Source: an uncultured Candidatus Saccharibacteria bacterium (GTDB lineage: Bacteria; Patescibacteriota; Saccharimonadia; UBA4664; CAZOQX01). Taken from it: DNA of 64,000 nt. Of the stretch, positions 7,791-49,233 are shown one piece after another (within the stretch, counting starts at the first letter, position 1; each line of letters begins with the position of its first letter). Below the pieces are notes generated by a model. It was not told where the DNA came from. It worked only from the letters and a program-made list of their open reading frames with translations, and made no database searches. A program made the position numbers and the translations under genes. The stretch lies in the NCBI GenBank assembly GCA_964582465.1, contig CAZOQX010000003.1, positions 1,115 through 65,114 of the forward strand, in the 5' to 3' direction.

Positions 7791-9017
7791 CTACCTAGTT
7801 GGCCCACTGCTGACGCCCGACACTAAGCCGTAAATCGGCAGAAGCACGGCGCCGATCAGGAAGGCCACCATCACGCCCAAAACTACCATGGTAGCAGGCT
7901 CAATCAGGGTGGAGATATTTTTGACGGCCTGATCGACCTCATCTTCATAATAAGAAGCTACCTTCTCCAGACTATCGCCGAGCGTACCTGTTTGTTCACC
8001 GACCGCGAGCATTTGGCCAACCAGCGGCAAAAACATCGGGTGGTCCGTAATTAATTCCGATAGCGATGTGCCGCTTTTGACACGATTAGTGATATCTAAA
8101 ATAGCCCGCTCGAAATTAACATTATTGATGGATTGGGCCACAATAGTGAGCGCCTGCAAAATAGGCACGCCAGTTGAGATCAGTGAACCCAGCGTCCGCG
8201 CGAACCGCGCCATGTAAACTTTTTCCATCAATTGACCAAATAACGGCACCTTCGTCTTCAAGCTATCCAGCTGGCTGCGGCCAGGCGCAGATTTAATATA
8301 CATCCGTAGGCCATAGCCTGCCCCGATCAGCACTAACACGGTAATGTACCAATAGTGGGTGGTGAAATTGGAGAGAGCGAGCATTATTCGCGTAAAAACT
8401 GGCAAGGGCTTTTTGAGATCTTCATACATCTTGCCCACCTGCGGTAAGACCAAAGTTAGCATCAAGGTTGACACACCCAAAAGCACAGCCAGCACCACAG
8501 CAGGATAGGTTAAAGCGCCTCTGATTTTTGACCTAATCGCCTGGTTTTTCTCCTCCTGGTCGGCCAGCTTGAGCAAAACTTCGTCCAGATTACCGCTCAC
8601 CTCCCCCGCCTCGACCATGCTGATATAAATCGTGCTAAATATGTCGGCATGCTGAGCAAGCGACTGCGATAAACTCACGCCCCCCTCTAGACTGCTCGAC
8701 AGGCTTCGAATTATCTCCTTAAGCTTCGGGTTGGTCATCTGTTGCTCTAGCATACGCAGAGCTTTGGCAATTGGCAGGCCGGCCTTTACCATGGTGGCCA
8801 GCTGGCGGGTAAAGATGACCTTCTCTTTCGTGCTAACACGGTGCAAGATTTTATCGAGGAAAGAAGAATCTAGGCCCGGTTTTTTGGTGCCAATTTCCAG
8901 AGGAAACAACTGTTTTGCAACCAAGAGTTTGGTGGCTTCTTTTTCGCTCGCCGCCTCAACTTCGGCTTTGACCAGTTGCCCGGTCGCGTCTTTAGCTACG
9001 TAGTAATACTGCTGCAT
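7791..9017 (-). CDS. pilC: Type IV pilus platform protein PilC (GspF family)
   Basis: 408 aa with two T2SS-F repeats (FTRQLATMVKAGLPI... and FARTLGSLISTGVPI...) and three TM segments. Confidence 0.92.
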   Translation of the reverse strand: MQQYYYVAKDATGQLVKAEVEAASEKEATKLLVAKQLFPLEIGTKKPGLDSSFLDKILHRVSTKEKVIFTRQLATMVKAGLPIAKALRMLEQQMTNPKLKEIIRSLSSSLEGGVSLSQSLAQHADIFSTIYISMVEAGEVSGNLDEVLLKLADQEEKNQAIRSKIRGALTYPAVVLAVLLGVSTLMLTLVLPQVGKMYEDLKKPLPVFTRIMLALSNFTTHYWYITVLVLIGAGYGLRMYIKSAPGRSQLDSLKTKVPLFGQLMEKVYMARFARTLGSLISTGVPILQALTIVAQSINNVNFERAILDITNRVKSGTSLSELITDHPMFLPLVGQMLAVGEQTGTLGDSLEKVASYYEDEVDQAVKNISTLIEPATMVVLGVMVAFLIGAVLLPIYGLVSGVSSGPTR

Positions 9018-9026
9018 CGAAGTCTC

Positions 9027-9305
9027 CTACTGAAAGGGATCACTCTTACCTAGATCGCCTGATTTCGGCGAAACATCGGGGTAATCCGTGTCCTTTGACT
9101 GGAGTTGCTGAAGAGCATTTTGATCAAAAGAGGTGTTGATCCTAGCGGGGCCGGCAGCCGGCAAGTTGCCAGATTTTTGGGACTTTTTGTGGTGCGGGAA
9201 AAGCATCCAGCCTAGCACACCGACGATTAAGACTAAAATAACGATTTCTTTTACGAGCTTGCTTTGAGCCCGATTCTGAGGCATGGCAACTTTGGGCATT
9301 TTCAT
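9027..9305 (-). CDS. Small bitopic membrane protein, possibly PilP-like
   Basis: 92 aa with one TM (IVILVLIVGVLGWMLF) and a C-terminal SDPF, reminiscent of the DPF motif of PilP-type proteins. ATGA overlap with the upstream pilO-like gene. Function is inferred from position only. Confidence 0.4.
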   Translation of the reverse strand: MKMPKVAMPQNRAQSKLVKEIVILVLIVGVLGWMLFPHHKKSQKSGNLPAAGPARINTSFDQNALQQLQSKDTDYPDVSPKSGDLGKSDPFQ

Positions 9306-9877
9306 TGCGTCCCTCCTGTAGTGCTAGCGGGCGGCGCCGCCTGATAGTAGGCTGTAATGTTTACGGCTGCCTGCACATTAGTACTCCCGGCACCATTAGG
9401 TGCCAAGTTGACGGATTGAACGTCAATATAGCGAGCAGCGTTTTCGAGTTTTTGCAATAAGCTTTGGACGCCGGCGTAAGATGCACTGATGGCTAGATTT
9501 ACGGGATAAGTAGCGACCCCTGTTGCTGCGCTGGCGGCGACACCACCCGGCGAAAACGTAGTCATTACCGCACTGCTTTTGGACGTCAAATCACTTACCA
9601 TCGCCACCAGCCTCTCCTCTTCGTTAGCTGTAGGTAGTAGGTGCAGAATTTGATCATGCTGATCTTTGACGGCGGCGTAATTTTGGCGCAGGGTCTGAGT
9701 ATCTTGATCCAGCTGCTTTAAGGCAGTGATTTTATTGTTGTAATCTGCGATCTGCTGCCCATCCTTCCCGGCTGTGTTTAAAATTGGCTTAATGATAAAG
9801 AAGCCAACTACGGCCGCAGTTGCAAGCCCAATCAATAAATACAGCCCGACTAGGTTCAGTAATTTGTGATCTTTCAT
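9302..9877 (-). CDS. pilO: PilO-like pilus alignment protein
   Basis: 191 aa with an N-terminal TM, a coiled-coil (KITALKQLDQDTQTLRQNYAAVKDQ) and a C-terminal ferredoxin-like region. Sits directly after pilN with overlapping stop/start. Confidence 0.65.
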   Translation of the reverse strand: MKDHKLLNLVGLYLLIGLATAAVVGFFIIKPILNTAGKDGQQIADYNNKITALKQLDQDTQTLRQNYAAVKDQHDQILHLLPTANEEERLVAMVSDLTSKSSAVMTTFSPGGVAASAATGVATYPVNLAISASYAGVQSLLQKLENAARYIDVQSVNLAPNGAGSTNVQAAVNITAYYQAAPPASTTGGTQ

Positions 9878-10476
9878 TTCGCCAAACCTCCGGTGGGATA
9901 AACATAGGTTGCGGAGAGCGAAAATGCCACGCGGGTTCCTTGGACGCTGGCTCCACTAAATGCTACGGAGTTAAAGTAGATTTGTCCTCCCGCATTCGCC
10001 ACACTGGTCGTACTTGGGTCGGGTGTTGGACTAGACTGCTTAAGCGCCGCGATGGCTGTGCCCACTTCATTGTAGGAACCAGCCGTGCCGGCAATGACAA
10101 CTTTCTCGCCATCGACATTAAGCGATTGCAGTGTGACCCCCTTCGGCAAAAGATCAGTCACCCGCTTAAAGATGGCCGAAAACTTATGTTGATTGCTAAA
10201 CAGCCCGTTCAATTCTTGTAGGCTAGCCTGGACAGCCAGGGCTTCTTTACGAAATGCGACGTTATCCGGTGAATTCACCTGAGCGTTGAGGGTGGTATAG
10301 CTATTTTTGGCCGAAGTCAGCCGCACTTTCTGGACGCCCAAGTACACGCCAGCAAGAACTGCCAAGCCCGCCACTAAAATTAGCCAGCCAACAATACTTG
10401 CCGTGGCTATCTTCTTAAACTTCTCCTCACGCTGACGGTTAAGGACTAAATCTGGTAGTAGGTTTACCTTGATCAT
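9874..10476 (-). CDS. pilN: PilN-like pilus alignment protein
   Basis: N-terminus MIKVNLLPDLVLNRQREEKFKK followed by a TM helix, which is the classic PilN INLLP signature. Confidence 0.75.
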   Translation of the reverse strand: MIKVNLLPDLVLNRQREEKFKKIATASIVGWLILVAGLAVLAGVYLGVQKVRLTSAKNSYTTLNAQVNSPDNVAFRKEALAVQASLQELNGLFSNQHKFSAIFKRVTDLLPKGVTLQSLNVDGEKVVIAGTAGSYNEVGTAIAALKQSSPTPDPSTTSVANAGGQIYFNSVAFSGASVQGTRVAFSLSATYVYPTGGLAK

Positions 10477-42607: not shown

Positions 42608-42614
42608 TACATTA

Positions 42615-42620
42615 ATTATA
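42615..42620 (-). promoter_or_regulatory. Candidate -10 box for polA (near-leaderless)
   Basis: The minus strand reads a perfect TATAAT 7 nt upstream of the polA ATG. No convincing -35 was seen. Confidence 0.3.
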
Positions 42621-42722
42621 GCGAAATTGCTTACTTTCGTGCCGCTTAAGGTTGCTAATCAGGTTGTCAGATTGCAAAATTGCTTTATTGGCATTGCCCG
42701 CTCTTCGACAAAAGGAGCAAAG

Positions 42723-43286
42723 TTGAGCACTCCGACCCTGACACGCCCGGCCCGAACCTACTGGAAGGTCGAGCGCCTGAAGCTGAGCTACAGTGGCATC
42801 GAGGAACGTCGCGAACAGGTACGGCTGCAATCCGAGGCCAACCTCATCGCCTCGCTGTGCGCAAATGGTCTCCACGCCCCGGCACTGGATCTCGACTTTG
42901 AGGTCGATACAGTGAACGTCGGAGACCGAACCCTGCTGACCTTCCACAAGCGAGTGCCTATGCGAGGCTTCAAGTCTCTGCTCAGGGCCTGGCAGGCCTC
43001 GGGCATGTGGCCTGGAGGTGAATGGTGGTGGCAGCCAGGAAGCGTGACACTCATGACTCTGTATCCGACGCGCCTAGTCGCCTCCAGCACGCCCGGCCAC
43101 CACCACCTCTACTACGATCGAGAGATCACCTGGGAGGAATACGCCGAGCTGCTACGTGGACTTCGCGACGCCGGGCTCATCCAGCGCGGGTTCTGTCGCA
43201 TGAGCCTCCGGCGCAAAATGACCATGTTGCGCCTCCCCGGGCACACCAAGAAGACCACACCTCTTCAACCCAGGTTCTCCGACTAG
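42723..43286 (+). CDS. Small protein with archaeo-eukaryotic primase (AEP/Prim-Pol)-like motifs; first gene of the GC-rich island operon
   Basis: The TTG at 42723 is preceded by AAAGGAGCAAAG and is in frame with listed ORF 42570-43286, whose 5' part overlaps polA. Ordered motifs are ALDLDFE (DxD-like), SSTPGHHHLYYD (compare the sGxGxHxYF-type motif) and MLRLPGHTKK (R-x-PG-x-x-K-like). Family assignment is from motif resemblance only. Confidence 0.5.
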   Translation: MSTPTLTRPARTYWKVERLKLSYSGIEERREQVRLQSEANLIASLCANGLHAPALDLDFEVDTVNVGDRTLLTFHKRVPMRGFKSLLRAWQASGMWPGGEWWWQPGSVTLMTLYPTRLVASSTPGHHHLYYDREITWEEYAELLRGLRDAGLIQRGFCRMSLRRKMTMLRLPGHTKKTTPLQPRFSD

Positions 43287-43320
43287 TGTCGGCACGCGGA
43301 CAGTTTGATTGGAGGTTCCA

Positions 43321-43527
43321 GTGGCAAAGTTGAAGCCACGACAGAGGCAAATCCTCGCAGCCCTGGTTTCCCTCGGCGGCGAGGGCAGTACCCGCGAGAT
43401 CGCCGAGAAAGCTGGACTCTCTCCGAACGGTGTAGCCCAGACGCTGGGCTCCCCCGCCTTCGACGACATTGTCGAAGGCTTGGACGGCAAGGCCGGCGAC
43501 TACCGGTGGAAACTGCGCGTTCGCTGA
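43321..43527 (+). CDS. Winged-helix DNA-binding protein (island gene 2)
   Basis: The GTG at 43321 lies 5 nt after GGAGG. (V)AKLKPRQRQILAALVSLGGEGSTREIAEKAGLSPNGVAQTL... is a typical wHTH of the MarR/ArsR type. Confidence 0.6.
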   Translation: MAKLKPRQRQILAALVSLGGEGSTREIAEKAGLSPNGVAQTLGSPAFDDIVEGLDGKAGDYRWKLRVR

Positions 43528-43731
43528 TGCCGAATTTCGGAATCAGCCAATTCGCCGCTGGTTTCACCTACTTCGTCGGTGCGAAACTTCAGCCGATCGC
43601 CGATCTTTTGACCGAACGCCGGTTACATGTGCTCGGCTGTGAGGACCGATTCAACAAGGACCGGCGGCGTCGGAAATTCGGCTGCATGCATTACCCCAAG
43701 GCAGCCATCAGACAATGGAGGAGGCACTGAC

Positions 43732-44154
43732 ATGGGTGAGATGTTGGTCGACGGCAGGGATGCCAAGGTCTACATTCTCTGCCGCCAGCCCGGTGACGTC
43801 CCGTTCGCGTGGTACGAATATTGGGTGGTGTTTCGCGATGGCGAAGTGATCGAGGGCGCTAGCACCAGCGTGCACGATCTCTCCATCGTCGGGGACACGC
43901 TCATGCACAGTCGCCGCATCAACAACGCCCAGTTCCAAACCCCGCCCACGCCGGGGCGAGGCAAGTCGTCGGAACGTTGGCCGGTTCGAGTCATTGAACT
44001 CGGCCACTACTACGGCGAGACCGATGAGGTGGACGATGATCCCCTCTTCTGTCGCTACGACTGCGGCGCCTTCATCACCTGGTATGAGGGTGATGCGCCA
44101 TCAGGCGTCGACCCGTTCGGCGAGTGCCCCAACCATCCGGAGGCCAAGCGATGA
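43732..44154 (+). CDS. Hypothetical protein (island gene 3) with a C-terminal CxxxC...CxxH pattern
   Basis: The ATG at 43732 is preceded by GGAGGAGG. 140 aa with strongly GC3-biased codons. CRYDC...ECPNH lies near the C-terminus. Confidence 0.55.
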   Translation: MGEMLVDGRDAKVYILCRQPGDVPFAWYEYWVVFRDGEVIEGASTSVHDLSIVGDTLMHSRRINNAQFQTPPTPGRGKSSERWPVRVIELGHYYGETDEVDDDPLFCRYDCGAFITWYEGDAPSGVDPFGECPNHPEAKR

Positions 44155-44417
44155 GAGCTAGGCACTCCCCCACACCCAGTGGCACCCCGATCCGTGATTC
44201 AGAGTCAATCGGGCTCAGAAGCACGTTACTGCGGCAGGCCGCTCCCTTGCGGCGGGCCGCTCTGGACCTTGATCCGGATGCGTGGCGACGAGCGGTTAAA
44301 GTGATCGGCTCTCCCACGGATGTCCGTTATGTGCTCGCCATGTTCGACGACGAACTGCCGGCACAGGCGCTGGAGTTCGCCCGACGCATGCTGGCAAAGA
44401 CGGAGGCATCAAAATGA
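44151..44417 (+). CDS. Hypothetical protein (island gene 4)
   Basis: ATGA start/stop overlap with gene 3. 88 aa, Arg/Ala/Pro-rich. Confidence 0.45.
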   Translation: MRARHSPTPSGTPIRDSESIGLRSTLLRQAAPLRRAALDLDPDAWRRAVKVIGSPTDVRYVLAMFDDELPAQALEFARRMLAKTEASK

Positions 44418-44530
44418 GCAAGCAAAAGACAGCTGTGATCGGTGCGGTCGGCCTGCTCGGGCTAGCGATGTTCTACCTCGGGCGGTTCATGGCCAGGCAC
44501 TCGCACGACCTCGGACCCTGCGGCGATTAG
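44414..44530 (+). CDS. 38-aa single-TM peptide (island gene 5)
   Basis: ATGA overlap with gene 4. MSKQKTAVIGAVGLLGLAMFYLGRFMARHSHDLGPCGD. Below the ORF-track length cutoff; found by reading the frame. Confidence 0.4.
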   Translation: MSKQKTAVIGAVGLLGLAMFYLGRFMARHSHDLGPCGD

Positions 44531-44539
44531 GAGGTCAAG

Positions 44540-44638
44540 ATGCGCAAGCTTGTAGGCTACACGCTTCTGGGCATCGCGGCCTACCTCGTTGCCAAGATCA
44601 TCTGGGATTTCCTCGGCCATCTCAGTGAACGGCCATGA
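44540..44638 (+). CDS. 32-aa single-TM peptide (island gene 6)
   Basis: The ATG is preceded by TTAGGAGGTCAAG. MRKLVGYTLLGIAAYLVAKIIWDFLGHLSERP. Confidence 0.4.
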   Translation: MRKLVGYTLLGIAAYLVAKIIWDFLGHLSERP

Positions 44639-44645
44639 GCGCCTC

Positions 44646-45038
44646 ATGAGATCTAGCCCACTCCTCAGCCTGCGTGAGCGTGAAGTCGCCGAACTCGCAA
44701 GCTCCGGTCTGACCAACAAGGAGATTGCCGCTCAGCTCGGCCTCTCGCCCGAAACCATCAAGAATCACTTGTCTCATGCCTTCACGAAACTCGGCGTACA
44801 CAACCGAATTGAGCTGGCTCGCGAGATGGTGCACCGCGAGATGATCCGCGCGAGCAGCACGAGGGTGACAATTCTCGCCACGTCCTTTGACGACGGATCT
44901 TGGTTCGTTGCCATCAAGGAGGACGAAACAGTCAGCGTCGTTCCGTTCAGCAAACGTGAGGAATGGGAGGCTTTTCGCCAAGCACTGGAAGTCCTCCAGC
45001 CCTACCTCTGCGCCCAACTGCGGATAATCGAGCGGTGA
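44646..45038 (+). CDS. LuxR/GerE-type HTH protein with the HTH at the N-terminus and an unknown C-terminal domain (island gene 7)
   Basis: LSLREREVAELASSGLTNKEIAAQLGLSPETIKNHLSHAFTKLGVHNRIELA is a canonical GerE HTH. A 65-aa uncharacterised C-terminal part follows. The start could also be GTG 44625 or the listed 44589. Confidence 0.7.
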   Translation: MRSSPLLSLREREVAELASSGLTNKEIAAQLGLSPETIKNHLSHAFTKLGVHNRIELAREMVHREMIRASSTRVTILATSFDDGSWFVAIKEDETVSVVPFSKREEWEAFRQALEVLQPYLCAQLRIIER

Positions 45039-45058
45039 GCTCTAGCAGCCCGACACCG

Positions 45059-45099
45059 GGGCCCGGGATTCTAACGAATTCCGGGCCCTTGGCCGTTTT
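45059..45099 (+). terminator. Terminator of the island operon
   Basis: 13-bp stem (45059-45071 pairs with 45076-45088, one G-U) with loop taac, then ttggccgTTTT. Confidence 0.55.
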
Positions 45100-45112
45100 A
45101 ATTACAAAGAAA

Positions 45113-45144
45113 GCGCCCCTGGCTCGTGCAAAGCCTCGGGGCGC
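45113..45144. terminator. Hairpin terminator just downstream of rpoD (usable on both strands)
   Basis: GCGCCCC-...-GGGGCGC 7-bp stem. T-runs flank it on both strands (minus: TTTCTTTGT; plus: GTTTTT). Confidence 0.55.
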
Positions 45145-45152
45145 AGTCGTTT

Positions 45153-46301
45153 TTAATGCAGGTAATCGCGTAGTTTTTTACTTTCGCGGTGCTTGCGCAG
45201 TTTGGCGAGCGCCTTGGCCTCGATCTGACGAATTCGCTCGCGGGTCACGCCGAATTCCTGTCCCACCTCTTCCAGTGTGTGACTGCGGCCATCGTCTAGC
45301 CCGAAGCGCATGCGTAAAATTTTCTGTTCGCGTGGGGTAAGTAAGTCAAGCATCTCACCTACCTGCTCTTTCAGCAGCTGATCGGTGGCAGCCTCAAGCG
45401 GCGTGCGCGACTCTTCGTCCGGAATGAAATCGCCCAGCGTAGAGTCGGCTTCCTCGCCCACCGGCGCTTCGAGCGACACAATGTCTTGTTTGATCTTCAT
45501 AATGTGATTAACCTTCTCGACTTCCATGTCCATCTCGGCGGCGAGTTCTTCTACCATCGGTTCGCGTCCCAGTTCTTGCTGCAAGCGCCGCTGGGTGCGA
45601 ATCAACTTATTAATCGTCTCCACCATGTGGACGGGGATACGGATGGTACGGGCTTGGTCGGCAATAGCCCGGGTAATAGCCTGGCGAATCCACCAGGTCG
45701 CATAAGTCGAAAACTTGTAGCCCTTGGTGTAATCGAATTTCTCCACAGCGCGGAGTAGGCCAGTGTTACCCTCCTGAATTAGGTCGAGTAAGTCGAGCCC
45801 ACGCCCAATGTATTTTTTCGCGATCGATACCACCAGACGCATGTTGGCCTCAGCCATCTTGTCCTTAGCCCGCTTGCCATCGGCCGCAGCCAGCGTGTTT
45901 TTAGACGCGTTCACGCCCTTCTGGATCCGCTTCGCGAGCGCTACTTCTTCCTCGGCTTTCAGCAAAGGGATTTTACCAATTTCGCGCAGGTACAGCCTAA
46001 CCGAATCGTCGGCCACTGTGTCATCGATATACGTTTCGGGCTTCTCGGGCTGGGTTTCCTCTTCCTCTTCGCCCTGGCCCCACATCAGCTCATCGCGCTG
46101 ATCAATTACTTCAACGCCGGCATCAAACAGTTGCTGGTAAAACTCATCGAGCTCCTCGACATTATCCTCGGCCTCGCCATAGATCGCGCTAACTTCTTGC
46201 TGTGTGACATAGCCACGCTCCTTGCCCTTGGCAATCAGCTGTTCAACTTCGGAATTGGTCGACGCATCTTCTTCTTGTGGTTTCTGAACCTTTTTCGGCA
46301 T
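45153..46301 (-). CDS. rpoD: Primary RNA polymerase sigma factor (RpoD/SigA)
   Basis: Acidic region 1 is followed by regions 2-4 ([71 protein letters not shown]). Confidence 0.97.
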
Positions 46302-48034
46302 TATAACTCCTTTACCTTGGCCGACAGCGCTTGGTGTTCGGCCATCAACTTTTGGGCCAAATCGCGCCTACCGGCTCGCTCGGCCTCTTTAATTTGATGC
46401 GTAATTTCTTCGTGGCGTCTCCGGGTGGCCAACACGACTAGTTCTTTTGCCAAGTGGAAGGCTTCGAAACTGCGGTCTTGCGGTCCGATCTCGGAATATT
46501 CTTCTTCGCCCTTTAATGAAAGGATTTTAACATAATCTGACAGTTCTGTCAGATCTCTCGCTATCTGGTCAGAAGTAGCGGCCGGCCTGGCTTTGAGAAA
46601 TTTGCAAATAGCTTGGTGCTCACTCCGGCTGAACAATTCTTCGTCCATATCGGCCAGGCTAGCGCGCAGATCGGGAAAGACTAAGTTCAGAGCCAGCAAG
46701 TTCTCCTCCACCACCTCTTCGCGGCTCAACTGCAGTGGGTCAGCCTTCTCCTTCGCCTCCATCTGGCGGACAGGCTTCGGCTCGGCTTGACTCAGTTTTT
46801 CTTTAATTACGGCGGGCTCACCATCGACCCGTTCAGCCAAAAGTTTAATGTAATGCTCTTGCTCCACCGGATCACGCAGATATTTGAGTACGGGTATGAT
46901 TTGATCGGTAAAACTGCGCTTGCCCAGGGCACTCGCCAGATCGCTGCCTGCCGCGTGGCGCTCAAACAACCAGTCCATGACGTATTTAGCCTCGGAAACG
47001 GCGGTTTGCCACAGCTCTGGCTTTTGCTTAATAAGCTCGTCGGGATCCTTGGCGCCAGCCATATCCACGACCGAAAGTGTTAAATTCAGCTGCTGGCTCA
47101 GGTCAATAGCCCGCTCCGTGGCACGCAGTCCGGCGGCGTCTTGATCAAAGGCCAGTTTGACGTTCTTTGTCAGCCGGCCAACCATCTTCAATTGGTCGAG
47201 CGTAAGCGCTGTGCCGCTCGAGGCTACCACCTGTTTCACGCCGGCCTGGTGGCTTGCCACGACGTCCATGTTCCCCTCTACTATTACAAGTTCGTCATGT
47301 TGTTTGACCGCCTCTTTGGCCAAGTGGAAGCCGTAGAGCACCCGACCCTTGTCATAAATCAGTGTCTGCGGGGTATTAAAATACTTTGGCCCGGTGGCCG
47401 TCGGATCAAGAATCCTCGCGGCGATGCCCACCGGCTCCCCGCGCTCATTAGAAATCGGAAAAGTTATGCGCCCACGAAACATATCAAACGTGCGATTGTC
47501 GCGCTGGCCCGTCAGCCCAGCCTGGTTGAGCTCAGCTATTGTAAAGCCCTGCTTGGTCATAAAGGTGGTCAGCCCTGACTGCGTCACCGGTGCATAGCCG
47601 AGCCGAAAATCTAGAATTGACTGCTTGGTCAGTCCGCGCTGCTTCATATAATCGAGGGCTCGCGGGTTCTTGGTCAGGCTAAGCTGATAGTACTTGACGG
47701 CAAGCGTCATGGCAGCCTTAAGCCGGTCTTTCAGCTTGGTGTTGCTCGGCCCCCGGCTCTTTAATTCCACCCCGGCCCGTTTAGCTAGCACCTCCAAGGC
47801 CTGCCGGAAATCCAAGCCTTCCATTTTCATCACGAATTTAAAGATGTCGCCGCCCTCGCCGCAGCCAAAGCAGTGCCAAATACCCTTTTCGGCGCTCACC
47901 ATCATACTAGGCGTCTTCTCGTTGTGGAACGGACAAACGCCTTTCATATTGCGCCCGGCTGGCTTGAGCTGAACGTAGCTAGCCACCACCTCGGCCACAC
48001 CCAGGCGTTCTTTAATTTCCGCCACTTCATCCAT
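46301..48034 (-). CDS. dnaG: DNA primase DnaG
   Basis: The ATG at 48034 gives [58 protein letters not shown] (zinc ribbon), then a TOPRIM domain ([10 protein letters not shown]). The 61 extra codons in the listed ORF (to 48217) run into the GC-rich islet and are rejected. Confidence 0.93.
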
Positions 48035-48113
48035 TAGAAGTAATTGTAGCACTTGAAAGCAAGAGCCCCGCCGGATGACCGGCAGGGCCCGCTTGAACCG
48101 CTGTGCTGTGTCG

Positions 48114-48302
48114 TCACTGTGAGTTATAGATGCTGGCATCCTCGCGGATACTGGCGACACAGTGAGTGCACAGGAGGCAAGACCCCAGCCAGCAGTGCGA
48201 GCAATCCTCGCAGTCATGCGGCGGCCCCACCTTGAAGAAGTCCCGACGCCGCGTCGCGCTGTTCTGGCTCGGAGTCGCTTGCTCGGTACCCGGTGCTGCC
48301 AC
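48114..48302 (-). CDS. Candidate 62-aa Cys-rich ORF in a GC-rich islet (uncertain)
   Basis: GTG start preceded by AGAGAGGA. The C-terminal half contains C-x2-C-x2-C-x4-C-x2-C-x2-C (HDCEDCSHCWLGSCLLCTHC). Competing ORFs exist in other frames, so coding is unproven. Confidence 0.25.
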   Translation of the reverse strand: MAAPGTEQATPSQNSATRRRDFFKVGPPHDCEDCSHCWLGSCLLCTHCVASIREDASIYNSQ

Positions 48303-49143: not shown

Positions 49144-49233
49144 GGAGAGGTCGCATAGTGGCCTAGTGCGCTCGCTTGGAAAGCGGGTGAAGTCGCAAGG
49201 CTTCCGAGGGTTCGAATCCCTCCCTCTCCGCCA
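49144..49233 (+). tRNA. tRNA-Ser (anticodon GGA), CCA encoded
   Basis: Manual fold: acceptor GGAGAGG/CCTCTCC; anticodon stem CTCGC/GCGGG with loop TTGGAAA (GGA); long variable arm TGAAGTCGCAAGGCTTC; T-arm CGAGG-GTTCGAATC-CCTC(C); discriminator G then CCA. Confidence 0.9.

Follow-up and report, generated by a model that had tools for sequence, protein, structure and literature searches.

A compact, phage-borne protein family with primase-polymerase-like motifs, represented in a variable GC-rich slot of a Saccharimonadales genome

Three compact proteins assigned to the archaeo-eukaryotic primase (AEP) fold are the closest described systems for the gene studied here: the RepB' primase of plasmid RSF1010 (PDB 3H20 and 3H25), in which a second domain, PriCT-1, follows the primase domain (PMC5862659); the primase-polymerase (PrimPol) of cyanophage S-2L (PDB 6ZP9, All3500-like); and HP0184 of Helicobacter pylori (PDB 2ATZ, DUF1882). 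They were grouped together in a published structural analysis (PMC8065100), and HP0184 has been classed as a Prim-pol domain (PMC3397514). We analysed a stretch of 64,000 nucleotides (hereafter, the window) of contig CAZOQX010000003.1, from an uncultured Candidatus Saccharibacteria bacterium, in which the gene at positions 42723 to 43286 encodes a small protein, P0001. With a probability of roughly 55%, P0001 is a miniaturised and divergent nucleotidyltransferase of the AEP/primase-polymerase fold, present as phage-type cargo in a Saccharimonadales genome. Homology of its family to the AEP fold, taken separately, appears likely, and actual nucleotidyl-transfer activity less so. The term "minimal AEP" is used below for a plausible explanation, the best available one, and not for a proven one.

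The open reading frame (ORF) runs from a TTG start to a stop codon at 43284-43286 and gives a product of 187 amino acids (aa). The identical product was called in an NCBI assembly and in a Logan assembly of an independent run. The start and the ribosome binding site upstream of it read as the original prediction had claimed (Table 1). The gene is genuine, and the family to which it belongs is large and unannotated. Three motifs, in the order of the AEP motifs and separated by "about 60" and "about 45" residues, had been proposed for this protein. All three are present and coincide with the best-conserved columns of the family; the measured spacings are 62 residues between D58 and S121, and 42 positions from H128 to R170. 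When the three motifs were searched for in this order with a loose regular expression, the six-frame translation of the window gave a single match, in the P0001 ORF, and 30 codon-shuffled windows gave none; the pattern exceeds chance.

A single-sequence search retrieved 17 homologues of P0001, and a profile search 187. With an exhaustive hidden Markov model search of 1.84 billion cluster representatives, 3,085 clusters were obtained with a cut-off of E≤1e-3, a number that falls to 2,898 for E≤1e-10, clusters being counted at 50% identity. Among the named relatives, none had a functional name and none a precomputed Pfam domain. The only library matches of the family were PHROGs 10893 (E 2.8e-13) and 18245 (E 2.3e-10), both of function unknown, which P0001 matched over residues 115-178. 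Among deposited phages, tblastn found the family in 135 records. To judge by their names, all are actinophages, with Gordonia, Mycobacterium, Microbacterium, Arthrobacter, Rhodococcus and Curtobacterium as hosts. In the 30 of these records that were listed, the gene is labelled "hypothetical protein". Most members measure 110 to 230 aa, and a Pfam scan of the ten longest, in search of domain fusions, gave no significant domain. The lack of a helicase partner, which had been thought unusual, is in fact the common state: of the 246 members retrieved, with a median length of 164 aa, almost every one is a protein on its own. A literature search on the family, on DUF1882 and on "primase 1D" returned nothing relevant.

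Conservation was scored over 280 domain copies. The best-conserved columns were those of the three motifs, to which two further residues, S44 (100%) and H51 (99.6%), have to be added; the latter lies just upstream of APALDLDFEVD in P0001. In the motif I-like segment, D56 and D58 are conserved at 93% and 95%. The motif II-like segment has S121 (91%), T123 (88%), G125 (96%), H126 (90%) and H128 (91%), followed by an acidic residue at the position of D132 in 85% of copies. R170 and K176 of the last motif are found in 89% and 83%. Position 154, which has the right spacing for the third catalytic acid of motif III, is Glu in 76% of copies, Asp in 5% (81% for the two together) and Gln in 10%. P0001 itself has Gln154 and may be weakened or repurposed; its D132 is an alternative candidate for the third acid.

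The distance between the first two motifs separates two forms of the protein. In 196 of 236 motif pairs (83%), exactly 7 residues lie between the second Asp and the first Ser of motif II. P0001 is one of the less common long forms, which have more than 40 residues in between (34 pairs out of 236), and its insert was modelled as two beta-hairpins flanking a helix at residues 80-92. Circularly permuted members also exist, in which the C-terminal half of the long form, with motif II, precedes the N-terminal half, with motif I (alignment A4: P0015, P0017, P0044, P0054, P0058, P0060, P0080 and P0105). These clean permutants argue for both halves forming one domain. Duplication followed by truncation is a textbook route to circular permutation, and four proteins, P0018-P0021, do contain two complete tandem copies (alignment A5). 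The idea of an active site assembled in trans, which the two-copy and permuted proteins had raised, was rejected, because the permuted forms are the C-terminal plus the N-terminal half of the long form and so keep motifs I and II within one domain.

AlphaFold2 produced a confident model of P0001 from a 97-sequence alignment (pLDDT 91.1, pTM 0.84), and a short-form member was modelled with a pLDDT of 90.7. The predicted P0001 fold appears nearest to those of RepB', S-2L PrimPol and HP0184. When the Protein Data Bank was searched with Foldseek, a single match stood out, 2atz (HP0184), with an E-value of 7e-3, a probability of 0.96 and a TM-score of 0.36-0.38. Unrelated structures reaching a similar Z were aligned over 54-95 residues only. 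Foldseek against BFVD returned only uncharacterised members of the family of P0001 itself. HP0184 also emerged from profile comparison: with hhalign, the family matched a profile of 86 distinct HP0184 homologues, taken from 120 Campylobacterales loci retrieved by their motif-II pattern, with a probability of 90.7% (E 1.2e-6, 105 columns). In this comparison S121, T123, G125 and H128, conserved at 88-96%, fall on the TPGHLHLY of HP0184. The weak match of the family profile among PDB sequences was again a segment of HP0184, NFTAYNTKTPGHLHLYVHK (HMMER, E 0.84). Finally, PF24387 ("AEP-like") was the only recurrent Pfam family matching more than two of the 97 members scanned. Its matches, in 7 of the 97, were all below threshold (best E 0.0016; one score seen was 12.4 bits, for a cut-off of 27 bits), and the one in P0043 runs from motif II to the Arg motif.

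The genomic context in phages is that of DNA replication and recombination. In annotated phages, the family gene lies within the early DNA-metabolism block, and its neighbours include a Cas4-like exonuclease, a RecA-like protein, a DnaE-like polymerase, an SNF2 helicase, endonuclease VII, a MazG-like protein and a dNMP kinase. It comes immediately after a DnaE-like polymerase gene in Mycobacterium phage Riparian. In Gordonia phage ParvusTarda, the genes for a DnaE-like polymerase, for RecA and for a Cas4-type exonuclease are close by, and in the other phages examined it is near Cas4-like exonucleases. Clustering the ORFs of 80 IMG/VR loci revealed no fixed partner. The most frequent neighbour was the SNF2 helicase (12 loci), and a PD-(D/E)XK nuclease, an AAA_24 ATPase, endonuclease VII, a MazG-like protein, a dNMP kinase and a Toprim-DnaB protein also recurred. 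A large primase/polymerase or primase/helicase was encoded as well in six cases: in Riparian, Barnstormer, Peas and Madraxi, read at the gene neighbourhood, in ParvusTarda, of which the right-hand 37 kb were covered, and in a phage contig from a metagenome. In a sixth deposited phage, CrunchyBoi, the neighbourhood contained DNA polymerase I only. Given that these six also encode a large primase, the small protein would have an accessory role and would not serve as replicative primase.

Long-form relatives in cellular contigs are solitary genes with varied neighbourhoods. One adjoins a UDG gene and a methyltransferase gene; another follows a MarR gene and is near genes for a UvrD-type helicase and RmuC; and P0024 has a resolvase and a tyrosine integrase in its vicinity. 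The other cellular relatives, those with UDG, UvrD-type helicase, MarR or RmuC neighbours, showed neither phage nor integrase genes nearby. One metagenomic contig of 70% GC (L127) has three consecutive long-form paralogues, at 8001-8657, 8753-9487 and 9566-10300.

Several observations weigh against a minimal AEP enzyme. Neither Pfam, NCBIfam nor PADLOC scans of P0001 gave a significant match. HMMER searches of PDB sequences, with the single sequence and with three profiles, remained non-significant (E 0.2-1.7), and the structural scores fall in the grey zone. Once the hhalign comparison with HP0184 was deprived of its ten motif-II columns, the probability collapsed to 0.2-0.4%, equal to that of the reversed-sequence control, so that the sequence link to HP0184 amounts to one motif, TPGHxHLY. 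Against S-2L PrimPol and the N-termini of four actinophage Prim-Pols, hhalign probabilities were 1.4% at most. As to motif I, ALDLD is present in P0001, and its two acids are among the conserved columns. The two hhalign runs, however, differ on which strand is equivalent to the motif-I strand of HP0184: with the long-form profile, HP0184 strand IVFDY is shifted onto LLTFH (residues 70-74) and the HP0184 helix onto helix 80-92, so that ALDLD may occupy either the canonical strand or one beside it. The short-form model has the DxD in a loop. The 7 residues that usually separate motifs I and II compare with about 25 in S-2L PrimPol. Gln at position 154 is shared by P0001 and its nearest relatives (P0002, P0024, P0027, P0029 and P0100). 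Lastly, HP0184 is described as non-essential with no known function, and no published biochemical data were found for it or for family members.

The original proposal of a minimal AEP domain thus stands in part. P0001 is a single small domain whose predicted fold and motifs point towards AEPs, with HP0184 as the top Foldseek match and an hhalign probability of about 90%. No match to a Pfam AEP family or to canonical Prim-Pols accompanies this, and the similarity to HP0184 is confined to motif II. In the comparison with profiles and structures that had been recommended, the Foldseek standout came with grey-zone scores, and PF09250 matched none of the 97 members. More generally, the curated AEP profiles (PF09250, PF24387, PF22548 and others) matched neither P0001 nor the family consensus significantly, and a Pfam scan of the consensus gave weak, non-AEP matches only.

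Another explanation, which we hold for possible though rather unlikely, is that the family derives from an AEP and is no longer a polymerase. The scaffold and motif II would have been kept, as in HP0184, and the protein would be a regulator binding DNA or nucleotides, or would catalyse phosphoryl transfer or hydrolysis at a His/Asp metal site (H51, D56, D58, H126, H128). It would account for the invariant H51 and for H126, at positions without His in S-2L PrimPol, for the absence in 83% of motif pairs of the helix that both S-2L PrimPol and HP0184 have between motifs I and II, and for Gln or Asn at position 154 in some 12% of domains, P0001 included. It also fits the nearest relative by sequence, HP0184, with its altered first and last motifs, and the full primase already present in the six phages examined. 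On the other hand, D-x-D, S..G.xH, Glu and R-x-P-G-x-x-K are conserved together, their spacing being AEP-like from motif II on, and no alternative enzyme family was matched in Pfam, PHROGs, NCBIfam or PADLOC. One specific candidate, a calcineurin-type GHxH phosphoesterase, was rejected, because the other signature motifs of that family do not occur in the P0001 sequence; no library scan indicated such an enzyme.

It is improbable that P0001 is no AEP at all, that is, a small alpha/beta domain (ferredoxin-like or RRM-like) of independent origin, with motifs acquired by convergence or by chance. The restriction of the HP0184 similarity to one 10-residue motif and the lack of a significant match to any curated AEP model would be expected in such a case. 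However, HP0184, picked by its sequence motif, is also the best Foldseek match, and the order and spacing of four motifs agree.

The position of the gene in the window bears on its origin. It is the first of a series of tightly packed, co-directional small ORFs forming a block of 2.4 kb (42.7-45.1 kb) between polA and rpoD. The GC shift of this island is real, at 60.7% (42723-45038) compared to 52.0% in the remainder of the window. A Pfam scan of island ORFs recognised no integrase, helicase, PriCT or zinc-finger domain, and a search for direct and inverted repeats around the island found no convincing flanking, att-like or origin-like repeats. L137 and L138, two related contigs of Saccharimonadales, keep the dnaG-rpoD-[slot]-polA-fpg synteny but have unrelated small genes in the slot. 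From the GC content, the absence of integrase, helicase and repeats, and the differing slot content in relatives, the island is best understood as foreign cargo in a variable slot. No feature points to a former replicon, and the P0001 gene does not mark a dead one, because a full-size primase is also encoded by the phage relatives examined. The view that P0001 initiated the replication of an integrated plasmid, satellite or other element, and that the island is the relic of that replicon, draws on the frequent use of AEP domains as initiators by mobile elements (PMC5862659), on a compositionally foreign island with the P0001 gene as its first ORF and on the resolvase and tyrosine integrase near P0024, but is very improbable, as the six phage genomes or contigs have a large primase besides, the other cellular relatives stand alone among ordinary cellular genes, neither the island nor the slot of L137 and L138 has recognised mobility genes, and P0001 has neither the fused or adjacent helicase, nor the PriCT or zinc module, nor the place of sole primase that characterise a Prim-Pol-helicase initiator.

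Table 1. Features of the P0001 gene and of the island between polA and rpoD (positions in the window).
Feature	Position	Strand	Basis and remarks
GC-rich variable slot ("island"), polA start to rpoD stop	42608..45152	.	GC shift; content differs in relatives
Shine-Dalgarno-like AAGGAG	42712..42717	+	5-nt spacer to TTG at 42723; read from sequence
CDS, 187-aa mini-AEP-like protein P0001	42723..43286	+	ORF and translation; full-length homology to family members
Motif I-like APALDLDFEVD, residues 52-62	42876..42908	+	D56 = 42888-42890, D58 = 42894-42896
Insert of ~55 aa between motifs I and II, residues 60-115	42900..43067	+	Long-form members only
Motif II-like LVASSTPGHHHLYYD, residues 118-132	43074..43118	+	S121, T123, G125, H126, H128, D132
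Gln154 codon, candidate motif III position	43182..43184	+	Glu/Asp in most of family
MTMLRLPGHTKK, residues 166-177: basic residue, Pro-Gly, Lys	43218..43253	+	R170, P172, G173, K176
68-aa ORF, second island gene, weak winged-helix / sigma region 4-like	43321..43527	+	Gene call in L001; Pfam and NCBIfam, all below threshold
Three overlapping small ORFs (43527-43730, 43732-44154, 44151-44417)	43527..44417	+	Gene calls in L001
LuxR/GerE-type HTH protein, last island gene	44646..45038	+	PF00196 GerE, E 7.8e-20; NCBIfam LuxR-type

The other genes of the island are listed in Table 1. For the two larger of the three overlapping ORFs, no match was found in Pfam, PHROGs, NCBIfam or PADLOC, nor in phages by tblastn, and for the smallest, none in the NCBIfam and PADLOC scans. 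In the product of the last gene, the helix-turn-helix (HTH) is N-terminal and some 70 residues without recognisable domain come after it, the reverse of the usual receiver-then-HTH order. Promoter and terminator scans around the island gave nothing convincing. The slot, at 10120-12272 in L137 and 2250-3770 in L138, contains different small genes in each of the three contigs, is GC-richer than its flanks in all of them (55.5% against 48.8% in L138) and has an integrase in none. As to the flanks, the RpoD of the window is 75-84% identical to its best matches, of which the named ones are mostly Saccharimonadales or Saccharibacteria. The dnaG ORF (46301-48217, minus strand) is 638 aa long as listed, compared to 578 aa in L137, and its first ~60 residues (MTARIARTAGWGLASCAL...) look like an over-extended start. 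The window has one tRNA, a tRNA-Ser(GGA) at 49144-49233 (plus strand), which is also its sole Rfam match.

Returning to P0001 as a minimal AEP enzyme, the following course of events can be proposed. The annotated members of the family are genes of a DNA-replication/recombination module in actinobacteriophages. D56 and D58, together with residue 154 (Glu or Asp in most members), may bind a divalent metal, and S121, T123, H126 and H128, together with R170 and K176, may hold the incoming nucleotide's triphosphate. From these two predicted sites we infer nucleotide transfer: short primers would be made or extended on phage DNA, in an accessory role. The Saccharimonadales copy would then be cargo within a horizontally acquired, GC-rich filling of the polA-rpoD slot. 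We suggest, as a tentative extension that may well prove wrong, that this is the smallest known family of AEP-type nucleotidyltransferases, with a core of about 110-130 aa, no helix between motifs I and II and extra invariant histidines, accessory in many actinophages beside a normal primase, and that the copy in this epibiotic Saccharimonadales bacterium is a trace left as genes passed from the phage pool of the actinobacterial hosts to the episymbionts living on them.

If this holds, carriage beside a primase would imply a distinct job, such as replication restart, synthesis of primers or short oligonucleotides, or counter-defence. Were both the AEP assignment and catalysis to hold, an unnamed family of at least 3,085 clusters would give the primase-polymerase fold a new lower size limit, a gene located by tblastn in 135 deposited actinophage genomes would gain its first functional lead, and so compact an enzyme would be of interest for priming or DNA-synthesis applications. 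The island, for its part, is reinterpreted as foreign cargo in a variable slot and not as a decayed replicon.

How P0001 compares with described proteins can be summed up as follows; the best available explanation makes its family a variant of a known fold, without annotation and of unusual compactness. S-2L PrimPol has the same order of motif II, third acid and Arg motif, with similar distances: 28 positions from H118 to D146 and 39 from H118 to R157, compared to 26 from H128 to position 154 and 42 from H128 to R170 in P0001. It differs in having Asp (D146) where P0001 has Gln154, in the helix included in its ~25 residues between motifs I and II, and in its overall architecture, a protein of 737 aa in which PriCT-2 and a large C-terminal domain follow the AEP domain, whereas P0001 is a single domain. 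An IMG/VR scan for relatives of S-2L PrimPol yielded a single locus, which did not suffice to build a profile. PF24387, with a model of 133 positions, describes a small AEP-like domain of a size similar to P0001.

HP0184 resembles P0001 most. Its motif II, TPGHLHLY, is near-identical to the TPGHHHLY of P0001, and it is likewise a stand-alone single domain of similar size (180 aa), function unknown. HP0184/DUF1882, a Campylobacterales subfamily of AEPs, is apparently widespread, occurring in Helicobacter, Campylobacter, Sulfurospirillum and Hydrogenimonas (L004-L123), and the Pfam model of DUF1882 spans only the first 73 residues of HP0184. The homologues of HP0184 have KVENIVFDYNG, KTPGHLHLYVHKGHT and KERGxSW strictly conserved. 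HP0184 matches PF08966 at 1.8e-37, whereas P0001 and eight family members scanned alongside gave no DUF1882 match. Its motif I is D-x-N, compared to D-x-D in the P0001 family, its last motif lacks the Arg found as R170 in P0001, and its conserved N- and C-terminal motifs are different ones. The loci retrieved with the HP0184 motif II were all Campylobacterales (120 of 120), and the homologues extracted from them share 55% identity or more with the H. pylori protein, whereas the family of P0001 is diverse and phage-borne.
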